This document shows positions 2-60,613 of a DNA stretch of 64,000 nt, piece by piece. Origin of the DNA: an uncultured Bacteriovoracaceae bacterium (GTDB taxonomy: Bacteria; Desulfobacterota; Desulfomonilia; UBA1062); NCBI GenBank assembly GCA_964456565.1, contig CAYWBU010000001.1:22827-86826 (forward strand), read 5' to 3'. Made by a program: the position numbers and the translations under genes. The notes beneath the pieces were generated by a model, which worked only from the letters and a program-made list of their open reading frames with translations, was not told where the DNA came from and did not search any database. The stretch's first letter is position 1; each line of letters opens with the position of its first letter.

Positions 2-658
2 CACGAGGCCAACCCCATGCTCGGACATCGCGGTTGCCGCTTGGGCGTGACCTTCCCGGAGATTTATGAAATGCAGGTGCGCGCCATTATTGAGGCCGCC
101 TGTGAAGTCAAGCAAAGCGGCGTGGATGTCAAGCCCGAAATCATGATTCCCCTGGTGGGACATGTCAAAGAGCTGGCCCTGCTCAAGGAGATGACTGTCA
201 GGGTGGCCGATGAAATCATGGTCGCTGAAGGCGTCAAGGTTGATTACATGGTTGGCACCATGATCGAACTGCCGCGGGCAGCCATCACGGCGGATGCCAT
301 TGCTCAGGAAGCCCAGTTCTTCTCCTTCGGCACCAATGACCTGACCCAGACCACCTTCGGTCTGTCGCGTGATGATGCCGGTAAATTCCTGCCCGATTAC
401 GCCGACAAAAAGATCCTGGAGAGGGATCCCTTTGCCGTCCTGGATCGCGATGGTGTCGGTCAGCTGGTTAAGATCGGTGTCGAGAAGGGCCGTGCCACCA
501 GGGCCGATCTCAAATGCGGTATCTGCGGCGAGCATGGCGGGGAACCTTCCTCAATTGAGTTCTGCAACAAGGTGGGACTCAACTATGTGAGCTGTTCTCC
601 TTACCGGGTGCCGGTTGCCCGGCTGGCAGCGGCACATGCGGCCCTGAAAGAGGGCTAG
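2..658 (+). CDS. ppdK: pyruvate phosphate dikinase, C-terminal PEP-utilising TIM-barrel domain (5'-truncated by window edge)
   Basis: Frame is open to the window edge. Motifs [10 protein letters not shown] and [17 protein letters not shown]...[18 protein letters not shown] match the PPDK C-terminus. Confidence 0.8.
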
Positions 659-1255
659 GTGTTCATAACCTTTGAAGGCGGTGACGGGGTGGGTAAAACC
701 ACCCAGTCCCGCCTTCTTTATGACTATCTGACCGCAAAGGGCATCGTCTGTCAGCTGATCCGTGAACCGGGCGGGACACCGTTGTCCGAGCGTATCCGGG
801 AAATCTTCATTGCCGAGGAGCGTGATTCGCGGACCGATTTGCTGCTGATCCTGGCGGCCCGTCGGGAGAACCTGGAAAAGATTATCAAACCGGCCCTGGC
901 CCGTGGCGAGACCGTGATAGCCGATCGTTTCATCGATTCAACGCTGGTATATCAGGGAATTGCCGGGGAATTGGGTTTGGAATATGTCGCCAAGGTTATG
1001 CAACTTGTGGCTGTGAATTTTAAGCCGGATCTGACCTTTGTGCTTGATGTGGCGCCGCAAAAGGCCACCGGACGCATAAAAAACCGCCATTCTGACCGGT
1101 TTGACAGGCGGGAAGATGAATACCACCGTACCGTCAGGGACGGCTTTGTGACCCTGGCCCGGGATGCGCGGCATGTGCTTGTTAATGCCGAGGACCCCAA
1201 ACAGGTTGTCCATGCGAGAATAATATCTGAAATATCGGCCCTAAATATTTTCTGA
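659..1255 (+). CDS. tmk: thymidylate (dTMP) kinase
   Basis: GTG start immediately after the ppdK stop. P-loop FEGGDGVGKTTQ and the DRF/DS motifs are typical of Tmk. Confidence 0.85.
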   Translation: MFITFEGGDGVGKTTQSRLLYDYLTAKGIVCQLIREPGGTPLSERIREIFIAEERDSRTDLLLILAARRENLEKIIKPALARGETVIADRFIDSTLVYQGIAGELGLEYVAKVMQLVAVNFKPDLTFVLDVAPQKATGRIKNRHSDRFDRREDEYHRTVRDGFVTLARDARHVLVNAEDPKQVVHARIISEISALNIF

Positions 1256-1535
1256 ACTTTTAACCTATTGAATATAAAATATATTTTTATCCTTGATCAA
1301 TCATTTTTAATGCGCTAGGGATAGCCTTATACTGTCATTTGAAGCTGGTCCATTTGCGTTTGGTTTAGCGAAAACTATCTGTAAGAGGAGAGTCAGATAG
1401 CTGCTTCTTGGATGGCAACCCCGGATAGTGAATGTTGTAACGTTGAATACCTCCTGCTGACCTTAACCCGGATTTTTTATGCATGTCTCCTCGATTTATT
1501 GGATCATGTACTGATTCGTCAGTATAACTGTTTGA

Positions 1536-3137
1536 TTGAGCCTGAAGGATGCTTTAGCCGGGAGTGGCGTGTTTATGAATGAGGCTTGCAACACTGCGAT
1601 GTTGCTTGAAAAATTGAGGGATCTTGAGCGGGAGAACACTGCGCTGAGGCGACGTGAGGAATATTACCGTGATCTGATCGACAATGCGGCTGACGGGATG
1701 TATGCAGTCGATCTCGACGGCTGTTTTAAACGAGTCAACGATGCCTTCCTGAAAGAAAGCGGCTATGCCCCGGACGAGGTGATCGGGCACAATTTTGCGG
1801 AAATCCTGCATCCGGAAGACCTTGCGCCCTTGCGTAGCGAATTGCCGGAGATCCTTAATGGTGAAGCGGTTACAGCTGAAGTGCGCTGCCGTCACAGAGA
1901 CGGTTTTTTCAGCTGGTTTTCCCTGGTGAACAGGGCCGTGCGCGAGGGTGCGGATATTTATATTTACGGAGTTGCACGCAATATCGATCGACGGGTGCGG
2001 GCCGATGAGGATCTGCGCCGAAGTGAAGAACGTTATCGCACCTTACTGGATAATATACCGGATGTTGTTTATGCGCTGGATTCGCAGTCCAGAATCGCCT
2101 CAGTTAATCTGCCTGCGATTATGAGGTATGGCTATCGCGCTGAAGACGTTATCTGCTTCATTTTTGATATCTTCGTCTATCCGGATGACCGGGGGCTGAC
2201 TGAGAAGATATTCCGGCAGTCGCTTGAGCAGCGCCAGACTTTTATCAGGGGACTTAAATTTCGTATTCGAACCAGGAATGGGGATATCGCCTGGGTTGAG
2301 GTTAACAGCCATAAACATTTTAATACGAATGGTTTGTATGTCCGCGAAGAGGGTGTGTTGCGTGATATTTCACGTAATAAACTGCTTGAGGAACAACTGG
2401 TGCGCTCCGAACGGATGGCAGCCACCGGACAGTTGGCGGCGTCCATTGCCCATGAGATAAATTCACCGCTGCAGGGAATCAAGTCCCTGCTGGATATGAT
2501 GAAGCGCCAGTATGATCATCTGGATGGAATGGATAAACAGCTGGACTTGATGGAAAAGGCCTTCGGCTCAATCGGAAACATTACCAGGAAACTGCTGGAT
2601 TTGAACCGCCCGGGACTGGGTGACAGACAGATAATGGACCTGAACAAGGTGGTTGTGGATGTTACCGCCCTCATGCGCAGCCATCTGCGCAGAAATCGCG
2701 TAAGGCTTGAGCTGCAGCTTGAACCGCAATTGCCCAGGATTGAGGCTTCTCCGCAGCAGATCAGTCAGGTGATTCTGAACCTGGTCAATAATTCCATGCA
2801 GGCACTTGAATCCGATAATGTCATGGCTGACGACAGCCACCGGGCCGGTATAGATGTCCGCACATATGGGGATAACGGACATGTTATAATCGAGGTTGCC
2901 GACAACGGACCCGGGATTGATCCGGATGAACTGGAAACGGTTTTTGATCTTTTTTATACCAGCAATAAATCTGATGGAATGGGAATAGGCCTGAGTCTTT
3001 GCCGCAGTATCATTGAGCAGAACGGCGGTTGGATCAAGGCCTGTAATCGCAGGACAGGTGGGGCAGTGTTCAAGTTTGCATTGCCGGTAGCAAGAGATGG
3101 AGGAATGCATGAGGCGTTACAGGATTTTACTGGTTGA
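1536..3137 (+). CDS. PAS-domain sensor histidine kinase (coiled coil, two PAS, HisKA, HATPase_c)
   Basis: H-box AASIAHEINSPLQ, followed by N/G1/G2 boxes (NLVNNSMQA, DNGPGI, GMGIGL). PAS-like segments lie upstream. Confidence 0.8.
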   Translation: MSLKDALAGSGVFMNEACNTAMLLEKLRDLERENTALRRREEYYRDLIDNAADGMYAVDLDGCFKRVNDAFLKESGYAPDEVIGHNFAEILHPEDLAPLRSELPEILNGEAVTAEVRCRHRDGFFSWFSLVNRAVREGADIYIYGVARNIDRRVRADEDLRRSEERYRTLLDNIPDVVYALDSQSRIASVNLPAIMRYGYRAEDVICFIFDIFVYPDDRGLTEKIFRQSLEQRQTFIRGLKFRIRTRNGDIAWVEVNSHKHFNTNGLYVREEGVLRDISRNKLLEEQLVRSERMAATGQLAASIAHEINSPLQGIKSLLDMMKRQYDHLDGMDKQLDLMEKAFGSIGNITRKLLDLNRPGLGDRQIMDLNKVVVDVTALMRSHLRRNRVRLELQLEPQLPRIEASPQQISQVILNLVNNSMQALESDNVMADDSHRAGIDVRTYGDNGHVIIEVADNGPGIDPDELETVFDLFYTSNKSDGMGIGLSLCRSIIEQNGGWIKACNRRTGGAVFKFALPVARDGGMHEALQDFTG

Positions 3138-3675
3138 TGATGAGCCCGTTATTTTGGCCGGTGTCGGAGCAGACCTGCTTTCACAGGGATATGATGTAAC
3201 CAGGGCCGAGGGCGGGGAGCAGGCCTGCCGGCTTCTGGACAGGGAAAGCTTCGACGTGGTGATCACCGACCTCATCATGGAGGAAGTCGGCGGAATGCAG
3301 GTGCTTGAAAAGGCCAAGGCCAAGGATTCCTCCTGTATGGTGATGATCCTGACGGGCTATGGCGACATGTCATCAGCCATAGATGCCCTGCGACTCTCGG
3401 CCGATGATTATCTCCTGAAACCCTGCGATCCCGAAGAAATGCATTTCAGGGTGGAGCGCTGTATCAAGGCCATTGAAATGCGGCGCCGGATCAAGACCTA
3501 TGAGAATATAATTGCGGTCTGCTGCGTCTGCGGCAAGATCCGTGATGATGTCGGCTGTGACCATGGCAAGGGCGACTGGCTTTCGGTTGAGCAGTACCTC
3601 TGGCGCCGCGCCATGGTTGCCCCGTCGTCGACATACTGTCCGGAATGTGCCCGGATGGCCGAGCAAAATCTTTGA
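3109..3675 (+). CDS. response regulator, REC domain plus C-terminal CxC...CPxC zinc-ribbon-like tail
   Basis: RILLVDDEP...VVITDLIMEE...ILTGYGD...LLKP form a REC domain. The tail is CCVCGKIRDDVGCDHGKGDWLSVEQYLW...YCPECAR. A GGAGG RBS sits in front of the ATG at 3109. The 5' end overlaps the 3' end of the kinase. Confidence 0.75.
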   Translation: MRRYRILLVDDEPVILAGVGADLLSQGYDVTRAEGGEQACRLLDRESFDVVITDLIMEEVGGMQVLEKAKAKDSSCMVMILTGYGDMSSAIDALRLSADDYLLKPCDPEEMHFRVERCIKAIEMRRRIKTYENIIAVCCVCGKIRDDVGCDHGKGDWLSVEQYLWRRAMVAPSSTYCPECARMAEQNL

Positions 3676-4806
3676 TCAGGCCTTAGGCTTAAGGCCTGAC
3701 CTGATCCAGTGACCAATAATCCTGAAAGGCCCCTGGAGTCCGCTGCCCATGAGTTGGGCGTAGCTTTTGCGCCCGCTGATGACGTCAATGTAGGCCGCGG
3801 CGATCTTGGGACTTGCCTCCAGGGCAGCAAATGATGGTGCGGGAAGGCCAGAAATGAAGCGCCCGAGGGTGGCGGCCTTTTTGAGGTCTCCCAGAAGATT
3901 GTTTGCGATTGCGCGCTCATAGGTTTGAGCCGGATTGGCGCCGGTGACAGCCTGTCCGGCGGCCGCGCCGCTGAACATCGCCTGATAAAGACCTTCGCCG
4001 GTAATGGGATCCACCAGGTGGGCGGCATCACCGCAGAACAGGACCCGTCCCTTTGTAAGCCGCTTGTTGCCGCTGAATACCGCCAGGGGAAATCCGTGGG
4101 CCGCACTGTAGGCCAGGTTTTCAATTTCCAGGAAGTTCCTGTAGTATGACCTGATCCGGCCGGCATGTCGGCGGCTGGTGCCGATCCCGACCGAGGCATG
4201 ATCCCCTTTGGGAAAGATCCAGCCGTAGCCGTCAGGGACAGAGCCGAAATTAAAGATGATGCTCTGGTCAATGCGTTCCCAGGGCACCACCGTTTCAAGA
4301 CAAAGGGCCTGGCAGTAGCGGTCATCGGGCAGCAGCTGGCGCCTCGCGATGCTGTTGGGTCCGTCAGCTGCGATAATCCAGGGGGCCTTGAGGACCTCGT
4401 TGGTTTTGCCACTGACGGTTTCAATCCTGCCGCTTTCCTGATCCACTGCAACAACCCTGGTGGAGTCGCGGAAAACAGCGCCGGCCGCGATGGCTGTCTG
4501 CAAAAGATGATAGTCTAGATCGCGCCTTTCGAACATGTACACACAGGGCTGCGGGCTGCTGGCCAGGCAGGTGCGTCCGGTATCCCTGAAGGAAATCCTG
4601 CACTGGGAGACCGCGTTCATTGAAAGTTTGAGGGTGCCTTGCGGCAGCAGCGGCAGGGCTTTGGCTGTCAGTCCGCCGGCGCACAACTTGTCCCGCGGAA
4701 AACTGGCCTTGTCCAGCAGCAGGACCTTGAGGCCCCGGCTGGCGGCGGTTCGGGCGGCGGTTGAGCCTGCCGGACCGGCCCCGATGACGATCAGATCGAA
4801 ATTCAT
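3676..4806 (-). CDS. geranylgeranyl reductase family FAD-dependent oxidoreductase
   Basis: N-terminal dinucleotide fold MNFDLIVIGAGPAGSTAA...LLLDK and a CAGGL motif. The ATG at 4806 is preferred over the upstream TTG. Confidence 0.7.
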   Translation of the reverse strand: MNFDLIVIGAGPAGSTAARTAASRGLKVLLLDKASFPRDKLCAGGLTAKALPLLPQGTLKLSMNAVSQCRISFRDTGRTCLASSPQPCVYMFERRDLDYHLLQTAIAAGAVFRDSTRVVAVDQESGRIETVSGKTNEVLKAPWIIAADGPNSIARRQLLPDDRYCQALCLETVVPWERIDQSIIFNFGSVPDGYGWIFPKGDHASVGIGTSRRHAGRIRSYYRNFLEIENLAYSAAHGFPLAVFSGNKRLTKGRVLFCGDAAHLVDPITGEGLYQAMFSGAAAGQAVTGANPAQTYERAIANNLLGDLKKAATLGRFISGLPAPSFAALEASPKIAAAYIDVISGRKSYAQLMGSGLQGPFRIIGHWIRSGLKPKA

Positions 4807-6900: not shown

Positions 6901-7575
6901 TCAGGCATCCGTCCCGGTGGGCCGCTGTTTCTTGTTGTGATCTTTTTCGTCGGGGAAGGCCTTGATTTCGGGCACACTCTTGTGATGGACTTCCGGGCGG
7001 CAGAATTTGTCGGGATACTTGCCTTTGATTTGGGCATAGAACCCCTTGAGCTTGTCCATGTCGGCATCAATGTCCCCGGTGGGTCTGATCAGCGGGCCAA
7101 TGCCGCCGGTCTTGCGGGAATAGTCGAGAAAACCGCAGACAATCGGAACGCCGGCACCATTGGCGATATGGTAGAAACCGGTCTTCCAGTAATGGGTGTC
7201 TCCCCGGGTGCCTTCGGGCGGTATTATGATAACCAGCTTTTCAGCCTTGTTGAATTCGTCGATGGTGGCATCCACCATGTTGTTTGATTTGCTGCGGTCG
7301 ACCGGGATGCCGCCCAGCCATTTCATTATGCCGCCAAAGGGGAAACGGAAGAGTTCCTTCTTGCCTACCCAGTAAACCCTGGCCCTCAGGACAAAGGCGT
7401 GGAACATCATAATCGGCATATCCCAGTTGGTTGTGTGCGGGGCCGCGATCATGACGCATTTGGGGTCGGAGGGCATTCCCCCTACGGTCTCCCAGCCGAA
7501 TAATTTTGTATAAGCCTTTGATATTCCGTAACAGATCTCCCGGATAACCGGGGTATCAAATATTGTTTTATGCAT
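6901..7575 (-). CDS. lysophospholipid (1-acyl-glycerol-3-phosphate) acyltransferase family protein
   Basis: HX4D motif PHTTNWD and PEGTR motif, as in the PlsC/LPLAT superfamily. Confidence 0.7.
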   Translation of the reverse strand: MHKTIFDTPVIREICYGISKAYTKLFGWETVGGMPSDPKCVMIAAPHTTNWDMPIMMFHAFVLRARVYWVGKKELFRFPFGGIMKWLGGIPVDRSKSNNMVDATIDEFNKAEKLVIIIPPEGTRGDTHYWKTGFYHIANGAGVPIVCGFLDYSRKTGGIGPLIRPTGDIDADMDKLKGFYAQIKGKYPDKFCRPEVHHKSVPEIKAFPDEKDHNKKQRPTGTDA

Positions 7576-13854: not shown

Positions 13855-14614
13855 GCTGATACTCGCCTTGCTGCTTTGCGGGTGTATCACGACGGTGAGT
13901 GACGGCGATCAGGTTGAAATTGCCCGCAGGATTTTTGCGAATGAATGCGGTGCCCGCCTTGAGCTGTTGACCGCCTGGAACCGTGGCGAAGATTTCGCTT
14001 CTCTGGGAATCGGCCATTTTATCTGGTATCCGGCCGGGCAGGAAGGGATCTATACCGAGACCTTCCCGGAGCTGACGGGTTTCATGCTGCAGCAGGGCAT
14101 TGCAGTGCCGGCCTGGCTGCAGGGAGACTGTCCCTGGCCCGACAGGGAGGCCTTCATGGCTGACATTGATTCTCCCGAAATGCTCCGTCTGCGCCTTTTT
14201 CTACAGGATACTATGGAATATCAGACCGCCTTCATGCTCAAACGCCTGGATCGGGCCCTGCCGGGGATGGTTGTTGCAGCCCCCTGGGGTGATAAACTGC
14301 CGGTACTCTGGCAGTTTATGCGAGTGCGTTTGTCGGCGGGAGGACACTACGCCCTGGTGGATTATGCGAATTTCAAGGGTGAGGGCACCTGTGCAACGGA
14401 ACGTTATGGTGGCTACGGCTGGGGGCTGTTGCAGGTCTTGAGCGGGATGCGGGGGGTCTGGCCCGGCGAGCAGGCCCTGCTGGATTTTGCCCGGTCCGCA
14501 GAGGAAGTGCTTGAAAGACGCGTCCAGCTGGCCCCGCCTGAACGCAAAGAGATTCGCTGGCTACCCGGCTGGAAGAGACGGATTGCAACCTATATCATCA
14601 GAGATTTTCCATGA
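13808..14614 (+). CDS. putative lipoprotein of unknown function
   Basis: Signal peptide ending ...LILALLLCGC, lipobox-like. The start is uncertain (ATG at 13808 inside the 3' end of uup). No recognisable domain. Confidence 0.45.
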   Translation: MCAGRSLKVLKAAITELILALLLCGCITTVSDGDQVEIARRIFANECGARLELLTAWNRGEDFASLGIGHFIWYPAGQEGIYTETFPELTGFMLQQGIAVPAWLQGDCPWPDREAFMADIDSPEMLRLRLFLQDTMEYQTAFMLKRLDRALPGMVVAAPWGDKLPVLWQFMRVRLSAGGHYALVDYANFKGEGTCATERYGGYGWGLLQVLSGMRGVWPGEQALLDFARSAEEVLERRVQLAPPERKEIRWLPGWKRRIATYIIRDFP

Positions 14615-15218
14615 TGTCCTGATCGGCGTCCTTGCCGGAATCCTTGCGGCTCTTGTAGGTCAGTTCATGTCTGATTTCCATGTCATCGCCCCAGAGTTTC
14701 ATCTCCAGATCGGTATATTCGGTGCGCCAGGAGACTTTGTATTCGAGGTCTCCCATGCTGAGTGCCAGTCCCCAGCTGGGTTTGCTGCTGCGGTATTGGG
14801 GATTGTGCCAGATCACCTCATCGCTCAGCGGTTCGCCATATTTTTTGGTGAGCAGATCCTTGAGCTTGGTGTAGGCCTCAATATAACCGGCTCGCTCCCA
14901 GTGTTTTTCCTGCAGGATGTAACGGCCGGCCACTAGGCTGTTATCAATGAAATCATAGACAATCATGGCCGAATAGCCTGCCAGGCTGCCGTCATAGACC
15001 AGTGATTTGTCATCCTTGACCTTCAGCTTGGATTTTTCGCGATGCTTGACCTTTCTCTTTGACATGCCCCATTCGCATTGCCGGAAGTCCTGACGATATT
15101 CCTTTTTTTTGAAGATTTTGGTCAGGCCGTCTGCAGATGGAGATTCTGGGTCATCCCCGGCATAGAGAGAGACTGTTGCGAACAAAACCAAAAGCAGCAG
15201 GATTGCAATTTTTTTCAT
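14598..15218 (-). CDS. secreted hypothetical protein
   Basis: MKKIAILLLLVLFATVSLYA signal peptide with an AGAGGTGG RBS. Its 3' end overlaps the 3' end of the convergent lipoprotein ORF. Confidence 0.5.
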   Translation of the reverse strand: MKKIAILLLLVLFATVSLYAGDDPESPSADGLTKIFKKKEYRQDFRQCEWGMSKRKVKHREKSKLKVKDDKSLVYDGSLAGYSAMIVYDFIDNSLVAGRYILQEKHWERAGYIEAYTKLKDLLTKKYGEPLSDEVIWHNPQYRSSKPSWGLALSMGDLEYKVSWRTEYTDLEMKLWGDDMEIRHELTYKSRKDSGKDADQDIMENL

Positions 15219-15437
15219 GATAACCACCTCTTTGATTATATTTGAGATCTAACATAACCCCGCCGGGATTAGCAAGCGGGTCCCCAATAAAAACAGATTG
15301 AAAATAAAATTTTGACTAAGCCGGGGGCATGGTATATTTTGAGGCATATTCTTGTAATGAATGTTATTCGATTCAGGAGACTTAGCGGTTGGGTATGGTG
15401 TAGGTCAGCCAGAAGTTGATGGCAGCCGGGAAATAGA

Positions 15438-20012: not shown

Positions 20013-21931
<1,919 letters not shown>

Positions 21932-21954
<23 letters not shown>

Positions 21955-24412
21955 TCTCCTGTTCCATCTGCTTCATGGCGTCTTCATTGATGACGGCATA
22001 TTCCTCATCCAGCAGGCCCTTGGACCTGAATGTATCAAGGGCACCTTTATAGGTCGGCATGCACAGCGATTCGGCGCGGGTTATCTGTCCGCGTTTGTAC
22101 ATCCGGGACGCATAGCGGTTTATGATTTTCAGGATATCCTTGTTGTTCTTACGCGAAAGTTTTTTAACGTTCTGGGCCACCGCCAGATATGATTCCAGAT
22201 AATTTTCGATCAGCCCGGCAAACATCAGGGCATGGTCCTTCTTGTTCTTCCCGACCATGTAATTACCTTCGATCCGCAGGGCGATCCCGGTTTTGAGCAT
22301 GAATTTCATGGCCGTCTGGAAGGCCTCCATGTCCATGATAAATTCCTTTTCGAGGATCAGGGCCAGGGTCTGGACCTCTTTGACAAAAAGTTTTTCCTCG
22401 ATCCCGTCCGGATAGCGCACCAGCACATTGGCAATCAGCGCAGCGGGCACAAAGAAATTGAGTGTGGTATTTTTATAATATTCAAGGTGAATGCGTTTGT
22501 CGGCTTCAACCAGGTAGATATCGGCCTCATCATCGGCCTCCACCCGGTCGATGGTGACCAGGCCCTTGTCGATCATAAGTTTGATGGTGTCATCAAAGGC
22601 ATGGTCGTCATCGGTAAGCGAGGAGGCAATGTTGTAACCGCTCTGGCGAATATATTTGAGATAGAGCTTGAAGAAAGTGCGGGTGGCATTTTCATCCAGG
22701 GCCTCGGTGCGGGATATCAGAACCGATGAGAGGACTGCAAACGGCGTTGCAACCGTCTGCTTGTAGATGGAATCGATCAGTTTGCCGGCCAGATCGTCAT
22801 AGAGGTAATGGCGTTCATCCTGGTTCATCTGGGAGTAGTTCGGCCGGCCGCGCATGTAGCCGTTCAGAGAGATGGGAGGTGCAAAGCGGACATAGACCTT
22901 GCCGTAGCGGTTTTTGAGGATCTTGCCGGCCTTGAGCAGCTGCCAGAAATTTTCCTTCTCCTTTTCGGCCCCTTTCATCTCCCGGATGTAGGCCCCTTCT
23001 TCGACCACCGTATCATAGCCGACATAGACCGGGACAAAATGCACATCCCGGGTTATACCGGATTCCCAGCCCTGCACAATCATTGAGAGCAGTCCCTTTT
23101 TGGGCAGCATCAGCTTGCCGGAGCGGCTGCGGGTGCCTTCGATGAAAAATTCCATCGGGATCCTTTCTCCCAGGATGGTGCGGATATAGGCTGAGAAGGC
23201 CTGGGCATAGAGGGGGTCATTCTTGAAGGTGCGGCGCATGAAAAAGGCCCCGCCGCGGCGCAGGAGCCAGCCCATGGGGAAGAAGGCCAGATTGATGCCG
23301 GCGGCTATCAGCGGGATGCTCATCCAGTTATGAAAGAGACAGTATGACAGCACCAGATAATCGATATGGCTCTTGTGGCAGGGAACATATACGATCTAAC
23401 CCTTGCGGGCCACGTCCCTGACCATCTTGAGTCCTTCGTCGTCAACATCCATGCCGTCATAGATGTTGTCAAAGATCCATGTCAGCACGATATTCAGGAA
23501 ATTGACCGTTGACGGCTGCATGTCGGCCGCCACCTGGTTGAGCGCCTTTTCCACATTGCGGCTGATTTTATCCGGGGCCAGGCCGTTGTCGGTGGCATGT
23601 GACCGCATAAAGGTCTGCAGCACCGGGTCCTTGATGGTCTTCTGGATAATGAAATCGCGGCTGCGGAAGGGGGCCCCGGAGATATTGCTGCCGAGACTGG
23701 AGAGCCTGAAGAGCAGTTCGCGTCTTATTTCATGGGCAGTTTCCTCAATAAACTTCGACCAGCCCTGGGTGTGTTTGACCACCTCCATAAGGTTGATGGG
23801 TTCACCGTGCTCGATAAAACCCAGTTCCTCTTTTTTGAAGAGGGTCAGCAGTTTCTTGCCGGGCCTGAGCTGCATCTTTTCCTCATGTGAGGCCTTACGC
23901 ACCTTGATGGGCATGCGTGAATAAATCAGACGCTGCGGCAGGATGTAGATCGGCTTGTCGATCTCCTTCTGCAGTTTGAGCAACAGCAGGATGGGGTCCT
24001 GCTCGAAGTTTTCCGGTTTCTTGTCAATAAAGATCAGTGAGGCGGTCCGGTCCTGCTGCATATATTCGATGTATTGCCGGTGAATGTCCTCCCTGGCGGG
24101 CGGTGAAAAAAGATTCTTGACCATCGCCGGCAACCGGCGCACCGGTTCCAGCAGGGGGAACTGCTTGCCGAAAATCAATCCCGGAGCCGGCAGTTCGTCC
24201 TGCCTGAAGCGGTAGTTGAGCAACAGGGTGTCAATGGAGCTGCGGGAATTGAGGGCGTAGACGATATGACCCTTTTCCGAAAGCGAAACGGTTGATTCCC
24301 GATAGATGCCGGGAATATTCATATGTCCGAAAAGCCGGTGAAAGATCGGTCGCAAAAGCGGACCGTAAAATCCATTCAGCAGATAAGCCTCTGCAGCGCT
24401 GCCTTTTTTCAT
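21932..24412 (-). pseudogene. plsB: glycerol-3-phosphate 1-O-acyltransferase PlsB homologue, interrupted by one in-frame TAG at 23396-23398
   Basis: ORFs 23396..24412 and 21932..23353 are in the same frame. Translation through the TAG gives ...[27 protein letters not shown]..., where [10 protein letters not shown] is the PlsB HX4D catalytic motif. FIEGTRSRSGKL (block III) lies downstream. Confidence 0.75.
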
Positions 24413-24450: not shown

Positions 24451-26217
24451 TTAATTTTCGTCATGCAGAAAGGCGATGATTCTGGTGATGTCAGCTGAGC
24501 TCAGGCCGGGACAGTTCTGCAGGTCGCTCTGGCGGAGATCTTTGATGTCGCGATCGGGGGGGAGATGTTTGAGGATGCGGGCCGTCTTTTGGGGGCCGAT
24601 TCCGGGGATCTGCTGCAGGATCGAAGAAGTGGTCCGGGTTGAACGTACCCGGCGGTGATAGGTGATTGCGAAACGGTGGGCTTCATCCCTGATCTGCTGC
24701 ATGATCCGGAGTTCGGCACTGCGCGCCGGAAGATGGACGGCATCCTTGCGGCCCGGCAGGAAGAAGCGGTCGCTCTTGGAACCGCGTTCCTTGGCGATGG
24801 CCGCCAAGGGGATGTCGGTCCTTCCGATTTCCTTCATGATCCTAAGGCAGGCATTCAGCTGCCCCTTGCCGCCGTCGATCAGGATCAGGTCGGGGCGGGA
24901 GGCGTCGTTGCCGAAACGGCGGGCAAGCACTTCCCTGAGCATCGCAAAATCGTCCTGGCCTTTAACTTCTCTGATCTTGTAGCGCCGATAGAGGTTTTTA
25001 TCCGGCCGGCCGTCTATGAAAACCGTTCTGGACGCCACGGAATAGCGCCCCTGGATCGTGGAAATGTCGTAGCATTCGATGCGGTAGGGGATAGCCGGCA
25101 GGCGGAAGGCCCGGGCAAGGTTGTCAAGGGGGGAAGCTGTTTGATCGTCCGGCTTGCTGCGGGCATTCTGGTCGGCCAACTGCAGGCGTTTGAGCGGCAT
25201 TCCCCGCGTTGGTCTGGTTATGGTGACCCTTGATCCGCGCATGTCCGACAGAATTTCGGCCAGCAGGTCTTTTTCCCGGGGCAGCTGCGCGGTGTGGATT
25301 GCATGGGGAATGACGGTGTCGTTCAGGTAGAACTGCAGCATGAACTGCGCGATGAAATCGCCGGAATCGGAGCGTAGCGCAAACGTTTTACTTTCGCATA
25401 GATTGCCGCCGCTGAAGCGCATCACGCATACCTGCCAGCCAGCCTGACCGCGGTATGTACCGAAAATGTCCACATCAACAGCGGATGTGCCGGCAACCGT
25501 CTGCGGGACAAGGGTGGTCCTGATGGCCTGGATCTGGTCCCTGATGCGGGCGGCCTTCTCGTAATTCAGGGCGGCGGCTTCGATCTGCATACGTCTTTGC
25601 AGTTCGCGCTCTAGGTCCTTGTCTTGGCCCTGCAGGAAGCGGATCAGGTCGTTGATGGTCTGGCGATATTCATCCGCTGAGATCCTGCGGGTGCAGGGGG
25701 CCGGACAGAGTCCGATCTGATGGAACATGCAGGGGCGTGTACGGTTTTTAAAGGCGCTGTCCTTGCAGCGCCGGACCGGAAAGATCCGGCCCACGGCCGA
25801 AAGGGTCTTGCGGGTTGCCTGGGCAGAAGAATAGGGTCCCAAATAGGTTGATCCGTCCCGGCTTGTGCTGCGCGTGATATATATGCCTGGCCATTCATGT
25901 GAAGTGGTTATCTTGATGCTGACATAGGTCTTGTCATCTTTCAGGACAACATTATAACGCGGGCGATGCTGTTTTATGAGACGGTTTTCCAGCAGCAGGG
26001 CCTCCTTGTCATTGTGGGTTACAATGTAGTCGATCCTGGCGGTATGCCGTCGAATAAAGGTCACCGAGGGGCGGGTGTCCTGCCCGAGATAATCGTGAAC
26101 CCTGTTTTTAAGGTTGCAGGCCTTGCCAATATATATTATTTCGCCATTCGCGTCCCTGAACAGATAGACGCCGGGAGATCGGGGCAAATCATGCAAAAGA
26201 TCTTCGGAAAGCGGCAT
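24451..26217 (-). CDS. uvrC: excinuclease ABC subunit C
   Basis: N-terminal GIY-YIG (GVYLFRDANGEIIYIGKACNLKNRV) and C-terminal HhH. Confidence 0.9.
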   Translation of the reverse strand: MPLSEDLLHDLPRSPGVYLFRDANGEIIYIGKACNLKNRVHDYLGQDTRPSVTFIRRHTARIDYIVTHNDKEALLLENRLIKQHRPRYNVVLKDDKTYVSIKITTSHEWPGIYITRSTSRDGSTYLGPYSSAQATRKTLSAVGRIFPVRRCKDSAFKNRTRPCMFHQIGLCPAPCTRRISADEYRQTINDLIRFLQGQDKDLERELQRRMQIEAAALNYEKAARIRDQIQAIRTTLVPQTVAGTSAVDVDIFGTYRGQAGWQVCVMRFSGGNLCESKTFALRSDSGDFIAQFMLQFYLNDTVIPHAIHTAQLPREKDLLAEILSDMRGSRVTITRPTRGMPLKRLQLADQNARSKPDDQTASPLDNLARAFRLPAIPYRIECYDISTIQGRYSVASRTVFIDGRPDKNLYRRYKIREVKGQDDFAMLREVLARRFGNDASRPDLILIDGGKGQLNACLRIMKEIGRTDIPLAAIAKERGSKSDRFFLPGRKDAVHLPARSAELRIMQQIRDEAHRFAITYHRRVRSTRTTSSILQQIPGIGPQKTARILKHLPPDRDIKDLRQSDLQNCPGLSSADITRIIAFLHDEN

Positions 26218-28928: not shown

Positions 28929-28951
28929 GGCCGCCGGGTTACCCGGCGGCC
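28929..28951. terminator. bidirectional rho-independent terminator between convergent hppA and the DUF374 gene
   Basis: AAAAAAGGCCGCCGGGT-T-ACCCGGCGGCCTTTTTT: perfect 11-bp GC stem flanked by an A-run and a T-run. Confidence 0.65.
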
Positions 28952-29673
28952 TTTTTTATTTTGCGGGGCAGATAATCCATAAAGTCATCAGGCACGGGCA
29001 GGTCGCGCGGATCGCCCTCACGGATGCCGTTCTTGACAAAATAACGCACCTGGTAGGTGAGCCGGTTGAGCCGCAGGTCGATCTCCTGCCGCAGTTCATC
29101 TGTTGCGGCATCGGACATTTCAGGGGCGACCAGGATGGGTTCACGGTCAAAGACCATGACGATTCGGGAAAACGGTTTGGCCAGGACGGTGCGGTCCCAT
29201 GAATTGAACTCCCAGCTGCGATCGGCCTCCATGGCGCAGAGCAGGATGGGGCTGCCGGTGCGCCCGGCAATGGTGGTTATGCCATGCTTGGATATATAGG
29301 GTGGCCCGGTGGGACCATCCGGAGTGATGACGCCGGGATAGCCGGATGCAAGGTGGTCGCAGAATTCATGGAGGGCCTCCTTGCCGCCGCGGCGCGATGA
29401 TCCGCGTTGGGGCCTGAACCCGTAGCGCTCAATCAGGGCGGTGATCATGTCGCCATCGCGCGAAGCCGAGATGATGCCGCCCATATTGCGATCGCGGAAA
29501 TGATAACTGGCAAAGGGAAAGATGCGGTGCCATGAGGTGTAGATGATGTCGCCGCGCTGGGTCAGGACTTCCTCTTCATTCTCCAGGCCGTAGACTTCAA
29601 TGCGGCAGCTGGCATAAATACTGCGCAGCAACACGTCGGCCGTCAGGGCTATGATTTTATTTTTTATCTCCAT
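28939..29673 (-). CDS. DUF374-type lysophospholipid acyltransferase-like protein
   Basis: About 240 aa with an LPLAT-like core (YTSWHRIFP...ISASRDGD). The C-terminal codons KKAAG lie inside the terminator stem. Confidence 0.55.
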
Positions 29674-29704
29674 CAGGTTTCTAAATCACAGGCCTGTGAA
29701 TCAA

Positions 29705-29731
29705 GTCAATAAATGAAAAGGCGACCCGTCG
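29705..29731 (-). terminator. rho-independent terminator downstream of the radical SAM gene
   Basis: AAAAGGCGACCC-GTCG-GGGTCGCCTTT hairpin, 38 nt after the radical SAM stop, followed by a T-rich stretch on the minus strand. Confidence 0.45.
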
Positions 29732-29768
29732 GGGTCGCCTTTGTTGCAGAGATGAAAAACAGTTGTTC

Positions 29769-31418
29769 TCAGACAGCCGCGTTACTGGGAATGTCCTTGG
29801 ATGTACCGGCGGAATCCACGGGCGTTTTTTCAGGTTTTTCTTCTGCCAGCTGGATGTGACGCTCCTTGTCGGTTCCGTAATTTTTATTGATGTATTCCAG
29901 TGACTCCAGCATGCTCCTGACGAAATTGGGATTCTTCTCGGCCCATTTCTGCATCTGTTCCAGAAACCTGGGCCGGTTGAGCTGGAATTCGATGCGGTCA
30001 ATGCCTTCGCCGTAGGCCTTTTTCTGGCTCCGCATACTGTTGATCTTGTGCTGGTACTGTTCCAGCCAGAGTTTGTCGGCAATCTTGGCGACACTGGCAG
30101 AGTAGCGGTCGATACCGTCCTTGATCTGCTGATTGGAGATGAGTTCCTCGGCCCCGGGTTCGGTCGGGCGGGCACCGAAACGGGTACAGGCGCTGCGCCA
30201 TACTTCCGGATTATCGATAATCATGCAGGGCCGGAGATAGTTGTCGGTATGGGGCTGGCTCATGCGGATATAGGTGAAAAACGGCGACTGCAGGGCCTCG
30301 ATCAGGCTGCAGTTGTGGATGTTGTGGGTGGCGTGATGGGCGAAGATGCAGGGCTCCACATCACCCTTGCTGTTGATGTGCAGATATCTGCGTCCGCCGG
30401 CAATGCAGCCGGAAAGCGCCGGCGCATCGGCCCAGAAATCCATGATGAAAAGGGGTTCCTGTTCGCGGTAGCGCTTGATGAATTCGCCGAATTCAACCCG
30501 CTGCTCAGCGGTTGGCATGAGGCTGAGGTCCGGCTGCGGACCTACGGGCATGAAGAGGAAATTCCAGCCGTAGACCACCCCCTGATTTTCCCAGAATTTA
30601 AGGAAATCACGGGAAACAAGGGTTTCAAAGTTTTTGGAAGTCAGAACCAGCGACATCCCGAAGAGCAGATTGCGCTGACGCATTTTGGCAACAGATTCGA
30701 GCACCTTGTCATAGGCGCCTTCACCGCGCATGAAATCGGTGTCTTCACGGGTCCCGTTGACACTGAAAGCCACGATTATATTGGCTGCATCTTCGATCCG
30801 GTCGGCAACCTCATCGGTGATCAGGGTGCCATTGGTGAATACCTGGAAGAGGCAGTCGTTGTGCTTCTTGGCCATGGCATAGATGTCATCAAATTTTACA
30901 AAAGGTTCGCCGCCCAGGATGGTGTAGAAGTAGACGCCGATCTGTTTGCCTTCGGCTATGATGCGGTCGAAGGTCTCAACGGACATATCGTCATCTTTTT
31001 TCTGGGAATATTCGGCGGCATAACAGCCGCGGCAATGCAGGTTGCAGCGCATTGTGGGGCTGATGAGGATGTTGTAGGGCGGGACAAAGCCATATTCATC
31101 GGCAAAGCTGTCGGCGGTCTGCATCCATTTGATGGCGCAGTTGCCGATGAAGTTACGGACAAAAACCCTGGCCTGCCTGGGGTTGCGGGAAAGCAGGTTG
31201 GCAAACCACTGTTTGGCGCCGGGATTCTGCTGCGTCCATGCCATAAAGCTCTGTAAAGGGCCGTCATCACCGTGGAAGATGTCCAGGGCGCTCAGACGCT
31301 TGAGGGCCTTGTCGATATTTTTTTGGGGATCTTTCTGCATGTAACGCACGATCCAATCAGCTGTTGTGACAATTGTGGCCTGAATTGATTTATTTTTGAT
31401 GGTATCCAGAATGCCCAT
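29769..31418 (-). CDS. radical SAM / SPASM-type enzyme with about 100-aa N-terminal extension and charged C-terminal tail
   Basis: CNLHCRGCYA (CX3CX2C), GGEPF, SVNG, and C-terminal CIAGG...VEPCIF...C auxiliary-cluster region. AGGAGG RBS in front of the ATG at 31418. Confidence 0.75.
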   Translation of the reverse strand: MGILDTIKNKSIQATIVTTADWIVRYMQKDPQKNIDKALKRLSALDIFHGDDGPLQSFMAWTQQNPGAKQWFANLLSRNPRQARVFVRNFIGNCAIKWMQTADSFADEYGFVPPYNILISPTMRCNLHCRGCYAAEYSQKKDDDMSVETFDRIIAEGKQIGVYFYTILGGEPFVKFDDIYAMAKKHNDCLFQVFTNGTLITDEVADRIEDAANIIVAFSVNGTREDTDFMRGEGAYDKVLESVAKMRQRNLLFGMSLVLTSKNFETLVSRDFLKFWENQGVVYGWNFLFMPVGPQPDLSLMPTAEQRVEFGEFIKRYREQEPLFIMDFWADAPALSGCIAGGRRYLHINSKGDVEPCIFAHHATHNIHNCSLIEALQSPFFTYIRMSQPHTDNYLRPCMIIDNPEVWRSACTRFGARPTEPGAEELISNQQIKDGIDRYSASVAKIADKLWLEQYQHKINSMRSQKKAYGEGIDRIEFQLNRPRFLEQMQKWAEKNPNFVRSMLESLEYINKNYGTDKERHIQLAEEKPEKTPVDSAGTSKDIPSNAAV

Positions 31419-31567
31419 GTGCGTAACCTCCTTGCTAGAGAAGTTTAGTAATCCCATAGACACCAATTTGCAAGCATTTTTTGTGCACTGCATAAAAGAT
31501 GTCCCGATAAAGTCTATCGTACAGGTATGAAAGGTGTCAGCTTTGCGCTTTTACGGAGCAGGCAGAT

Positions 31568-31807
31568 GTGCTAATGATTTTTGCCATGCTGGATAAAATA
31601 CCTTTTTTGCACAGAGATACTGCCTACAATATCATCATTGAAGATGACATCTCCTTTGATGCCCTGCATGCCCTGCTGGACAACCTTGGCGAACAGGGGG
31701 CCTTTGATGCGCAGGAGTGTAGCGCCGACCTCTATTATTTCACCTACGGCGGCATCAATTATACCGTGGGGGTTGACGGGCAGGATGTGTTGATTGTGAT
31801 TAAGTGA
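31568..31807 (+). CDS. small hypothetical protein, divergent from the radical SAM gene (start 31568 or 31586)
   Basis: 73-79 aa with an acidic N-terminal half and a Tyr/Gly-rich C-terminal segment (DLYYFTYGGINYTVGVDGQD). No recognisable domain. Confidence 0.35.
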   Translation: MLMIFAMLDKIPFLHRDTAYNIIIEDDISFDALHALLDNLGEQGAFDAQECSADLYYFTYGGINYTVGVDGQDVLIVIK

Positions 31808-31823
31808 TAATAATGAGCAGGAA

Positions 31824-32633
31824 ATGATTGATATCCATTTATGCCAGCCCGATGGCTGCAAGTCGTGCGGGGCATGCTGCGGGCTGTATAATTATGTTGA
31901 AAATTCCAGGCCGGCCCTGACCGAAAGGCTGCGGAACCGGACCCGGCTTTTTACCGGAGTCAGACGCGGGGACATTGAGCTTGACGCCTATCAGGAGGCC
32001 CTGCGGCACCGGGAAGATAACCGGCGGATCTATAAAACCATCTATACTTGCGAATTTGTGGGCTTTCTGGATGCCGATGAAAAACGGGTCGGCTGTATGC
32101 TGCACCCCATGGGCAATGATGGGATCGATCTGCGTGACCGAAGTTTTTACGGACAGGAAATCTGTGACGGGCATTTCTGTCCAAGCTACCAGAAGCTGGC
32201 ATCAAACGAGGCCCGGATCATGGTGGATGTTATCCAGGACTGGTATCTCTATGGCTGCGTGATAACCGACATCGATTTTGTCAGAGAGTTTTTCCGGATC
32301 GTGCAGGACTCTCTGGCCGAGACGCTCAAACCGCAGAAAGTTCTGGAATCAGAGCGGCTTGCCGCGATTATCCTGGAGTACTGCTCCCTGAAAACCAGCT
32401 GGCCCTATTGTGACAAGTCCCGCCCCCGTTTCGGTAAATATTTTTTTGTGGGTGAAGATTATGACATCGCCCGCATTGATTATGATAAAATTGGTGCAGA
32501 AAAGTCCCCATATGATAAAATTCTGTTGAGCCTGTCATCCATGTTTGATTCCGGCGCAGAGCTGGCGGCGGCAAATGCGGTGCTCACAGGGATTATTGAA
32601 AGGTTTGTCAGTGAATACAGAGAAATTGATTGA
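31824..32633 (+). CDS. YkgJ-family (CxxCxxCC) cysteine-cluster protein with C-terminal extension
   Basis: CKSCGACCG, then C...C...H..C and DGHFCP motifs as in UPF0153/YkgJ zinc- or iron-chelating domains. 16 nt after the small ORF. Confidence 0.55.
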   Translation: MIDIHLCQPDGCKSCGACCGLYNYVENSRPALTERLRNRTRLFTGVRRGDIELDAYQEALRHREDNRRIYKTIYTCEFVGFLDADEKRVGCMLHPMGNDGIDLRDRSFYGQEICDGHFCPSYQKLASNEARIMVDVIQDWYLYGCVITDIDFVREFFRIVQDSLAETLKPQKVLESERLAAIILEYCSLKTSWPYCDKSRPRFGKYFFVGEDYDIARIDYDKIGAEKSPYDKILLSLSSMFDSGAELAAANAVLTGIIERFVSEYREID

Positions 32634-54726: not shown

Positions 54727-56118
54727 GCACCCTTTGTATTTTCGTTATTTCGAGGTCATCCAAGCCTCCGGGATGTCTTACTTGAATCCAGGGGGCTTAA
54801 AACTCAAAATTTGAGCAGTTTTTTTTGAGGGATGCTTGAAAGGCCGGTTTTGTCTCAAACAGATCGTCAGGGTAGATAGGTTGAATATATCTAAAACCGA
54901 ATCCATCAGTAATTTAACATAACATATATTATCGGACCTAAATAATAAGAACCCTCCGGATCGAGGGGGGCTCATGTACGATAGTCGGCATTGATCTCAA
55001 CATATTTATAGGAGAAGTCCGTGGTCCATGCTGTAAAAGAGCCTGGGCCGTCACCGACACTGATGGAAATCTTGATGTCGTGCTGCTGCATGATTTTATG
55101 GGCGCGGTCTTCCGAATAATCGGGATGGCGTTCGCCAGCCAGCACAACCGGCTGATCACCAATATGCATTGAAATCCCGGCGGACTCGATGGCTATGCCG
55201 CTGTAGCCGACAGCCGCAATGATCCGACCCCAGTTGGGGTCCTCGCCGAAGATAGCAGTCTTTACCAGCGGTGATTTGGCGACTGCCATTGCCACGGTTT
55301 TGGCAGATTCAATGGTGGCAGCTCCATTGACTTCAATCTCGGCCAGCTTTGTTGCCCCCTCACCATCGCGCACCACCATTAAGGCCAGATCCCTGATTAC
55401 CGCATGGACCGCTGCATCAAGCTCATCCGGATTAACCTGGTGAACCTGACTGGCCATCAGGATCAGTGTGTCGTTGGTGGACATATCTCCATCAACGCTA
55501 ATGGCATTGAAGGTGTCCTTGACCGCGTTATCAAGAATCTGCTGCAATTGCTCGGGTGTCGCGACCGCATCGGTCATGACGATCGCCAGGGTCGTTGCCA
55601 TATTGGGGGCAATCATCCCCGATCCCTTGGCGACTCCCAGCACAGTGGCCTCGCCTACGGAGCGTTCAGACACCTTGGTGCAGGTATCCGTGGTAAGAAT
55701 GGCCTTGGCAAAAGAGTCAATATCATCACCCAGATTCCGGACAAGCTGCGGCACGGCAGCTTCGATTCTTTCAGCGGGCAGTCTCTCACCTATAACGCCG
55801 GTTGACATGGGGATGACCTCATCGGTTTCAATCCTGAGCTGGCGGGCGGCTGCCTGCATGGTGCGGCGGGCGTCCTGTATTCCGTTTTCACCGGTGCAGG
55901 CATTGGCATTGCCGGAGTTGATAAGGATGGCCCTGGCCTTGCCTTGCCGGACAATGTCCATGTCAATCAGGACCGGTGCGGCTTTGACGGCATTGGTTGT
56001 GAAAACCCCGGCCACGGCCGCCTCCTGTTCACAGTATATCAGCCCCAGATCAAGCCGGGTGCTTTCCGGCGATTTCACTCCGGCATTAATTGAAGAAAAT
56101 TTGAAAAAATCCGGCATA

Positions 56119-58752
<2,634 letters not shown>

Positions 58753-58807: not shown

Positions 58808-59737
58808 TTATTTCAACATGTATCTTTGTGGATTTACATGGATACCGTTAACCAGAACTTCATAATGGAGATGGGGCCCGGTTGATCGGCCGGTGTTGCC
58901 GATAAATGCAATTTTGTCGCCTTTAACGATCTGCTGGCCGACTTCGACATTTGAGGCTTTGAGATGACCGTAGCGGGTGACTATGCCGTAGCCATGATTG
59001 ATCACCAGGAAGTTGCCGTAGCCGCCATTCTTTTTGTAGGCGGTCACGATTCCGTCGGCCGGGGCAAAAATCGGGGTTCCCTGACGGGCTGCAATGTCAA
59101 TGCCCTTGTGAAAATGCCGCCGTCCTGTGAAAGGTGAATTGCGCCACCCGTAAGAAGAGGATACCCAGCCTCTGGAAGGCCAGATAGAAGGAGTATGCGC
59201 CATCAGTGACCGCTGGCGCTCCAGTTCGGTCAGCAACTCTCTGGATATCTGATTTTCAACGTCAATATCATCCTCGATCTGTTTGATATGGGAATGCAGT
59301 TTGCGGGTGATAATTTTTTCCGTCAGCACCTCGCTGTTCATGCTTTCAGAGATTGTGCCGCTGCCGGAGCCAACCTCACCGCCGCCGATGCCGACGATTT
59401 CTTCATGGGTTTCCAGATCGATCTTGGCTATTTCACTCAGATGGCGGTTGAAGCATCGCAGGTCATTCATCTCGGTGTCAAGCTTGACAACTTTGTCGGT
59501 GAGGACAGCGAGCTGCTTCTTCTGCTGCTTGTTGACCTGCTTTATGTTGTCGATTCTTGTGAGGTCCGCCCTCAGGGTGTACAGCCGGTACCCGGCAATA
59601 CCTGAAAAAACTGTGAGGCTGACAAAAAGAACGGCTGCCAAAATAAAAATCGATGATGAAACCGAAGTTTTTTTCATCGATTTGTTATCTTCTGATATTA
59701 ATAAAACTGTCCAACGTGATCTCATGCGACTTTTCAC
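58808..59737 (-). CDS. M23 family metallopeptidase with N-terminal coiled coil (EnvC-like)
   Basis: Signal/TM segment, coiled coil, then HKGIDIAA..GTPI.A...G.V........GYGN...I.HG.G..T.YGHL...GTGRSTGPHLHYEV. Confidence 0.8.
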   Translation of the reverse strand: MKSRMRSRWTVLLISEDNKSMKKTSVSSSIFILAAVLFVSLTVFSGIAGYRLYTLRADLTRIDNIKQVNKQQKKQLAVLTDKVVKLDTEMNDLRCFNRHLSEIAKIDLETHEEIVGIGGGEVGSGSGTISESMNSEVLTEKIITRKLHSHIKQIEDDIDVENQISRELLTELERQRSLMAHTPSIWPSRGWVSSSYGWRNSPFTGRRHFHKGIDIAARQGTPIFAPADGIVTAYKKNGGYGNFLVINHGYGIVTRYGHLKASNVEVGQQIVKGDKIAFIGNTGRSTGPHLHYEVLVNGIHVNPQRYMLK

Positions 59738-60073
59738 TCCGTACTATTCCGCGCTTCTTATATCCAGATTTGCGCTCAACATGCAAGCATCAGGGATGTT
59801 AGCTTGATATATAATGTAATTATCAGCAGATGCAATACATCGGGGAGCAGGGAAAGCCCCTTTCCATGCAGCCTTTTCGGCGCTGAAAAATTCTCCATTT
59901 ATGGGCTCAGACTTATGCATACCCATAATATCGGTTAGTTGCATATTAGGCTTTAGTTTCGGTAACATTTTTGACACTGAAGAGCCGGTTTGGGATGTTT
60001 GTTGAAATTCAACCAGAAGACCGGAGGATTGATGCGAAGAGTGCATCTCCCCGGAATAGATGACGAATTTGAT

Positions 60074-60541
60074 CTAATTGTCGGGGAGTTCATATATCAG
60101 GGCCGTTTCCCTGCAGTTCGGGAAATATTGGCATTTGATACAGTCCGCCCAGATTTTACTGGGCAGTTCATTTTTATCGATCAGGCTGAACCCAATGGCT
60201 TTGAAAAAATCCGGAACATAAGTCAGGGTAAAGATTTTCTTGATGCCCAGATCGGGAGCCTCGGCGATGCATTTTTCAACCAGGAGCCGTCCCATACCGT
60301 TGCCCTGCAGTTCATCGCGGACCGCAAGGGTGCGGATTTCCGCAAGGTTCTCCCAGGAAACCTGAAGGGCGCAGCAGCCATTTATGCGTTTCACATCCTC
60401 TTCATCCCTGATGACCCAGAAATCGCGGATAGAGGAGTAGACCGAATACAGCGATTTGGGCAGCATCAACTCCTTTTTCACAAAAGGGTCGATCAGATCC
60501 CTGATAAGCGGGGCATCATTTACATTGGGTTTAACGATCAT
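60074..60541 (-). CDS. GNAT family N-acetyltransferase
   Basis: Acetyl-CoA binding motif R..GNGMGRLLVE. 155 aa. Confidence 0.6.
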   Translation of the reverse strand: MIVKPNVNDAPLIRDLIDPFVKKELMLPKSLYSVYSSIRDFWVIRDEEDVKRINGCCALQVSWENLAEIRTLAVRDELQGNGMGRLLVEKCIAEAPDLGIKKIFTLTYVPDFFKAIGFSLIDKNELPSKIWADCIKCQYFPNCRETALIYELPDN

Positions 60542-60613
60542 ACTGTCACCTGAGATATTTTGAATAGAGATAGATCATTGTGACCTGCAAAAGTCAATCG
60601 GATTCTAATCGGA

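Follow-up and report, generated by a model that had tools for sequence, protein, structure and literature searches.

A PlsB-like acyltransferase gene of an uncultured bacterium carrying a single in-frame TAG codon just ahead of its catalytic motif

The most widespread bacterial route to lysophosphatidic acid is formed by PlsX and PlsY, and the glycerol-3-phosphate acyltransferase (GPAT) PlsB is absent from most genomes (PMC11633183, PMC1950310). The HX4D motif of the PlsB enzymes is needed for activity (Heath and Rock 1998, as cited in bioRxiv 10.1101/2023.04.30.538836). Members of the PlsB family can join pathways in which two positions are acylated in either order, as described in PMC10593935. 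Translated in-frame TAG codons have been reported from some Deltaproteobacteria, in which trimethylamine methyltransferase carries pyrrolysine (Pyl) at a conserved site (PMC8318568, PMC1976440). Here, an in-frame TAG codon in a PlsB-like gene is analyzed. The gene is located in a stretch of 64,000 nucleotides (nt) from an uncultured bacterium of the Desulfomonilia lineage (assembly GCA_964456565.1, contig CAYWBU010000001.1, positions 22,827 to 86,826), hereafter called the window. An earlier note on this DNA had drawn attention to the interruption.

The reading frame of the PlsB-like gene (21932..24412, minus strand), delimited with the map of open reading frames (ORFs), Pfam, NCBIfam and homologues, starts with ATG at 24412, ends at 21932 and comprises 826 codons plus a terminator. 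Codon 339 (23396..23398, minus strand) is a TAG, as read in the DNA and in the homologue column, and is the sole internal stop of the frame; the natural terminator (21934..21932, minus strand; ORF map) is also TAG. Around the interruption the minus strand, from 23410 to 23351, reads GCC CGC AAG GGT before the TAG at 23398..23396 and ATC GTA TAT GTT CCC TGC behind it, followed by CAC AAG AGC CAT ATC GAT for the HX4D motif and by TAT CTG GTG. The stop is located within the catalytic domain, 7 residues ahead of the catalytic His346. As written, the frame gives two ORFs. The N-terminal fragment (23396..24412, minus strand; ORF map) has 338 amino acids and carries no acyltransferase motif; alignment to the PlsB of Thermomonas haemolytica (PDB 9vuq) indicated that it corresponds to the N-terminal domain and approximately 90 residues from the start of the catalytic domain. 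The C-terminal fragment (21932..23353, minus strand; ORF map) starts with the GTG and has 473 amino acids. No Shine-Dalgarno-like sequence was found in the 20 nt before this GTG. The HX4D motif (23360..23377) is located behind the TAG but ahead of the GTG, so that neither callable fragment carries motif I. The earlier note had described one PlsB-family gene in two collinear ORFs of the same frame, with a single TAG immediately before HX4D and a downstream fragment callable solely after this motif. This description proved correct in frame, coordinates and by-eye translation, with the stop at codon 339, the motif at residues 346-351 and the GTG start past it.

Profile searches were performed with the 826-residue read-through product, with an X at the position of the stop. 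A single match to the Pfam family Acyltransferase (PF01553; residues 333-464, E = 1.8e-25) was found to cross the TAG and was followed by a match to GPAT_C (PF19277; residues 475-803, E = 2.2e-59) over profile positions 1-343 of 344. The NCBIfam PlsB profile gave one alignment, of residues 107-824 with profile positions 61-791 of 799. A search of the protein database gave 3618 homologues. The 56 best full-length proteins among them are uninterrupted, have 818-841 amino acids and share 52-59% identity with the product; they come from metagenome-assembled genomes assigned to Thermodesulfobacteriota, Desulfomonilia, Syntrophaceae and 'Deltaproteobacteria'. Since the single Pfam and NCBIfam alignments cross the TAG and these 56 homologues align end to end, the two ORFs are, judged from the sequence, one gene and not neighbours sharing a frame by chance.

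The read-through product displays four acyltransferase motifs, all encoded on the minus strand. Motif I, the catalytic HX4D, is HKSHID at residues 346-351 (H346-K-S-H-I-D351; 23360..23377), and its columns are invariant in 109 of 109 aligned homologues. Motif II, GAFFMRR (residues 388-394; 23231..23251), aligns with GAFFARR of PDB 9vuq, and motif III, FIEGTRSRSGK (residues 423-433; 23114..23146), and motif IV, VPVYVGYD (residues 460-467; 23012..23035), align with the respective blocks of this structure. The score against the NCBIfam PlsB equivalogs TIGR03703 and NF003441 was 411.3 bits, under their cut-offs of 618.5 and 610. Because it stays below these curated equivalog cut-offs, the gene is called PlsB-like and not PlsB sensu stricto. 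It belongs to a clade of Thermodesulfobacteriota proteins of ~826 amino acids that are named in the sources either 'glycerol-3-phosphate O-acyltransferase' or '1-acyl-sn-glycerol-3-phosphate acyltransferase'. By motif and domain criteria the gene can be assigned as a PlsB-like GPAT, with its positional and substrate specificity predicted at most. As the order of acylation varies within the PlsB family (PMC10593935), the exact reaction of this clade should not be assumed.

The domain limits of Thermomonas PlsB (N-terminal domain, residues 1-270; catalytic domain, 271-580; HX4D, 366-371) were used to place the lesion in the protein. The TAG aligns to Glu359 of this enzyme, which puts the break ~88 residues into the catalytic domain and ahead of each of the four acyltransferase motifs. 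As it stands, the allele is therefore predicted to be null, since the 338-residue product has none of the four motifs and a product started at the GTG lacks HX4D. Apart from the TAG the gene appears undamaged: no second stop or frameshift occurs in the 826 codons. Columns conserved in at least 95% of the 56 close homologues are kept at 58 of 62 positions in the N-terminal part and at 155 of 161 in the C-terminal part (213/223 in total). In a leave-one-out comparison the 56 homologues themselves gave means of 0.98 and 0.99, and minima of 0.85 and 0.91, for the N- and C-terminal parts, respectively, and the window gene thus falls inside the range of intact homologues. Given the lack of further decay, the lesion must be of very recent date or else an artefact.

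The codon that preceded the TAG was traced by reading its column in an alignment of 109 full-length homologues. Among close homologues (52-59% identity) the column holds Ser in 55 cases and Ala in 1, among middle homologues (43-44% identity) Pro in all 9, and among distant homologues (31-35% identity) Pro in 37 and Thr in 7. The codon itself could be read in eight related loci and was TCG in five and TCT in three. With Ser in 55 of the 56 close homologues and TCG or TCT in all eight loci, the TAG is most parsimoniously derived from TCG by one transversion, C-to-A on the coding strand and seen as G-to-T on the plus strand. The earlier note had placed the stop where PlsB has Glu and had derived it from GAG. 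Its alignment was right, in that classical PlsB has Glu359 at this column (9vuq). A GAG ancestor is rejected, however: the gammaproteobacterial PlsB, although correctly aligned, is the wrong reference for this clade, which has Ser encoded by TCG or TCT. The comparison with plsB of the closest relatives, also proposed in that note, indeed gave these sense codons and not GAG in all eight loci.

TAG is an ordinary stop codon in this DNA. In the mechanical ORF map of the window, with 58 ORF ends, 29 end in TGA, 15 in TAG and 14 in TAA. At least ten Pfam-supported genes, the PlsB-like gene among them, end in TAG at their natural C-termini. The match to Enolase_C in the TAG-ended enolase extends to profile position 294 of 296 and residue 425 of 427; that of RlmH, also ended by TAG, extends to profile position 154 of 154 and residue 144 of 145. 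The other genes of this kind encode the C-terminus of PPDK, an FMN-reductase protein, a response regulator with an HD domain, a NadB-like protein, a PP-loop protein, PGI, a SufD-like protein and a GNAT protein. The TAG terminator of the PlsB-like gene itself is located where its homologues end, and reading through it adds 51 codons. A scan for same-frame ORF pairs parted only by TAG revealed no other internal TAG in the genes of the window. Two further pairs picked up in this way, at 2..1255 (plus strand; PPDK C-terminus and thymidylate kinase) and at 58808..60574 (minus strand; GNAT and M23 peptidase), are adjacent unrelated genes. Because TAG closes many genes at their natural ends, and no second internal TAG is found in the window, there is no genome-wide reassignment of TAG.

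These data are best explained by a real and very recent nonsense allele of an otherwise intact PlsB-like gene, to which a probability of about 0.55 is given. A single C-to-A substitution would have turned the ancestral TCG serine codon into an ordinary TAG stop. Translation would halt after residue 338, ahead of all four motifs, and any product restarted at the downstream GTG would lack HX4D. The resulting null would be a pseudogene formed very recently, or else a nonsense variant that has either become fixed or still segregates in the sequenced population. Lysophosphatidic acid would then be made by another route, most plausibly by PlsX/PlsY encoded elsewhere. The explanation supposes that the base is truly present in the DNA and that such another acyltransferase route would compensate. 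Loss of a PlsB-like enzyme can be survivable, as the PlsX/PlsY route is widespread and PlsB is often absent. Furthermore, the other housekeeping genes of the window have full-length profile coverage, and about 55 genes are without broken frames; since every other housekeeping gene is full-length, the region is not generally error-ridden or decaying. Several points weigh against a real nonsense allele. Pfam scans of essentially all ORFs found no plsX or plsY in the window, in line with the earlier note, so that the compensating route is an assumption, and plsB is essential in Escherichia coli (PMC11633183). The total absence of other decay is equally expected from a sequence error. A near-identical genome was sought, but no exact match was found for the N-terminal fragment, for UvrC or for enolase, and the closest matches share 59% (protein search), 56% (genome contigs) and 55% (metagenome contigs) identity. 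With the best relative just 59% identical, a mutation is not separable from a base-call or consensus error.

Such an error, made in sequencing, assembly or consensus building, is quite possible, though it is held to be the more doubtful explanation. The true codon would then be TCG (Ser) and the gene intact and functional, with the T at plus-strand position 23397 (the A of the minus-strand TAG) being a miscall or a minority-strain base in the consensus. G-to-T or C-to-A changes are the classic signature of oxidative (8-oxoguanine, 8-oxoG) damage during library preparation, which counts for an artefact. So do the otherwise perfect gene, with its conserved columns at the level of intact homologues, the distance of one base from the commonest codon of the clade, and the finding that metagenome assemblies of this gene tend to fail at the VYVPCHKSH block beside the TAG (see below). 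However, the sequence appears generally accurate, as judged from the ~55 other genes of the 64-kb window without broken frames, isolated substitution errors are rare in polished assemblies, and lone nonsense alleles are common in real genomes. Translation of the TAG, by pyrrolysine, an amber suppressor tRNA or leaky near-cognate read-through, would yield the full-length active enzyme for at least part of the time, and is regarded as improbable. The zero frame does run directly into a conserved motif, the gene shows no decay, and the column varies in the wider family (Ser, Ala, Pro, Thr, Glu), so that many inserted residues might be tolerated. Pyl machinery is also found in some marine and symbiotic Deltaproteobacteria (PMC1976440, PMC8318568). 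Nevertheless, TAG occurs at this column in none of the 109 homologues and in none of the eight related loci, and it naturally ends at least ten genes of the window, including the PlsB-like gene itself. Bacterial Pyl has been reported in methylamine methyltransferases and not in lipid acyltransferases. Searches with ARAGORN and Rfam found no tRNA-CUA in the 64-kb window, where tRNA-Val (CAC) was the only tRNA detected, and the Pfam scans of the window revealed neither pyl genes nor methylamine methyltransferases. The 141-nt segment surrounding and following the TAG (23280..23420, minus strand) does not form a significant RNA fold (z = -1.45; 19 of 200 shuffles fold equally well or better). Recoding or stop suppression, which the earlier note had listed among its options, thus finds no backing in TAG usage, in the codons of relatives, in the tRNA and pyl content of the window or in RNA folding. 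Still less probable is a more specific form of this idea, namely that the organism belongs to a Pyl-encoding or amber-suppressing lineage of the Thermodesulfobacteriota in which UAG is ambiguously decoded and a change from TCG to TAG was tolerated, since the acyltransferase would still be completed with an inserted residue at a variable loop position. In that case a core phospholipid enzyme would contain Pyl or a suppressed residue.

A functional split gene, in which translation would restart at the ATC behind the TAG and the two separately made halves would assemble into an active enzyme, or a bypass by a prfB-like frameshift, is hardly credible. An AAGGG string just before GGT-TAG-ATC could act as a Shine-Dalgarno-like element beside the near-cognate ATC. 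However, ATC is a very poor initiator and is merely 4 nt away from AAGGG, the break falls ~88 residues past the start of the catalytic domain, away from a domain border, and no homologue is naturally split at the position of the TAG. A +1 or -1 frameshift is excluded, as the conserved sequence stays in the zero frame after the TAG: homology resumes from the very next codon, while the +1 reading VRSYMFPATR matches nothing. Adenosine-to-inosine (A-to-I) editing of the mRNA would turn UAG into UIG, which is read as Trp. Such editing appears unlikely, as GGUUAGAUC lacks the UACG loop motif of the TadA type.

Interruptions near the same site were also observed in related loci, for other reasons. 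In L004 (MVZW01000251.1; 1-153) and for the protein P0075, metagenome contigs end inside or beside the VYVPCHKSH block, resulting in shortened gene calls, one of them of 473 amino acids. A third locus, L005 (ENA MUDA16-1_SAMN06140902_METAG-scaffold_7513; 1970-4448), encodes a homologue with 55-59% identity to the window gene that is frameshifted ~35 codons before HX4D; the ORF from 1970 leaves the frame after INLLNKAL, and the protein is taken up again by a second ORF (2934..4448). This split may reflect an error of assembly or a pseudogene that arose independently. Assemblies appear to break preferentially in the most conserved block of the PlsB-like gene. Two candidates for a second case of the interruption were rejected. 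P0074, a protein of 473 amino acids with the same MLSY start as the C-terminal fragment of the window, is a gene-calling artefact: its gene starts 63 nt from the contig end, and the upstream DNA continues the protein, with TCG. The split of P0073 in L005 lies near the same place, but it stems from the frameshift ~35 codons upstream, which was introduced during assembly or is a lesion independent of the TAG.

In an annotation, both ORFs should appear as a single plsB-like gene, flagged for its internal stop as a pseudogene or a candidate sequence error, and not as two proteins. If the stop is real, the organism does without its PlsB-like acyltransferase. This would be a small data point on the dispensability of a poorly studied Thermodesulfobacteriota GPAT clade versus PlsX/PlsY. 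The flexibility of the genetic code would be touched only if the TAG proves to be translated, and nothing found points there.

The PlsB-like gene is preceded by uvrC (24451..26217, minus strand; ORF map, Pfam) and followed by a gene of the rlpA family (21313..21954, minus strand; DPBB_1 and SPOR domains in Pfam) whose TTG start lies within the 3' end of the PlsB-like gene, giving an overlap of 23 nt (21932-21954). A PlsB-like gene followed by an rlpA-like gene with a similar overlap, of 29 nt (1457..1485), is also found in L004. The gene order in the window is uvrC, plsB-like, rlpA, eno, apbE, and in L005 it is uvrC, plsB-like, eno, apbE. The overlaps suggest that the PlsB-like gene and rlpA share a conserved operon, in which a premature stop in the former could also have polar effects on rlpA. 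Two other acyltransferase-related genes are located in the window. The first encodes a PlsC-like acyltransferase of 224 amino acids (6901-7575) with a PF01553 match. The name PlsC is not secure, since its scores are far below the NCBIfam PlsC cut-offs (57.7 vs 102.95 and 38.3 vs 501). The second encodes a DUF374 protein of 244 amino acids (28939-29673) without an NCBIfam match. The earlier note had speculated that these paralogues could matter if plsB is dead. Nothing in the present data, including the sub-cut-off scores of the PlsC-like protein, shows that they substitute as glycerol-3-phosphate acyltransferases.

Some further features of the window were observed. The DUF374 gene adjoins a gene for a radical SAM/SPASM protein of 574 amino acids (28939-31493 for the two together), which reaches none of the NCBIfam equivalog cut-offs and whose best match is NirJ-like with 80 bits versus a cut-off of 515. 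The regions 31571-32633 and 14100-15227 contain solely ORFs without Pfam matches, some of which overlap (e.g., 31824..32633 on the plus strand and 31571..32174 on the minus strand). GC skew is approximately +0.03 to +0.13 over most of the first 56 kb (+0.016 in the 46-48 kb bin) and falls to about zero or slightly negative values at 56-62 kb, which could be a local effect of gene orientation. The longest ORF for ArgJ (54972-56300, with a GTG at 56300) overlaps the end of secA (56119-58752) by ~180 nt; the true argJ start is probably further downstream, since the ArgJ profile begins at residue 68.

Compared with the described systems, the window gene is closest in build to bacterial PlsB (E. 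coli; T. haemolytica, PDB 9vuq), with which it shares the same three-part layout, motifs I-IV (HX4D, GAFFxRR, EGxRSRxG and VPVxxGY) and both Pfam domains. It differs from these enzymes in its separate clade, its sub-cut-off score and the interruption of this copy by a stop. The PlsB-family proteins of mycobacteria (PlsB2; NF002886 and NF008883) share superfamily and domain pair with it, but give weaker full-length matches, of 242 and 144 bits, well under their cut-offs. With prfB, encoding RF2, the window gene has in common an in-frame stop after a Shine-Dalgarno-like purine-rich string. However, coding in prfB continues in the +1 frame, whereas in the window gene it continues in the zero frame and a frameshift would destroy the protein. 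The Pyl-encoding methylamine methyltransferase genes mttB, mtbB and mtmB, including those of Deltaproteobacteria, to which the lineage of the window is related, resemble it in having an in-frame TAG followed by a conserved continuation in the same frame. In contrast to these, the window gene belongs to another family, its TAG is conserved in no orthologue, and the window lacks pyl genes and tRNA-CUA while TAG terminates widely in it. Compared with ordinary bacterial nonsense alleles and pseudogenes, the window gene differs in showing no further degenerative changes. It likewise has one premature stop, created by a one-base change, with loss of the catalytic part. Single-base nonsense changes that interrupt conserved genes are entirely ordinary.

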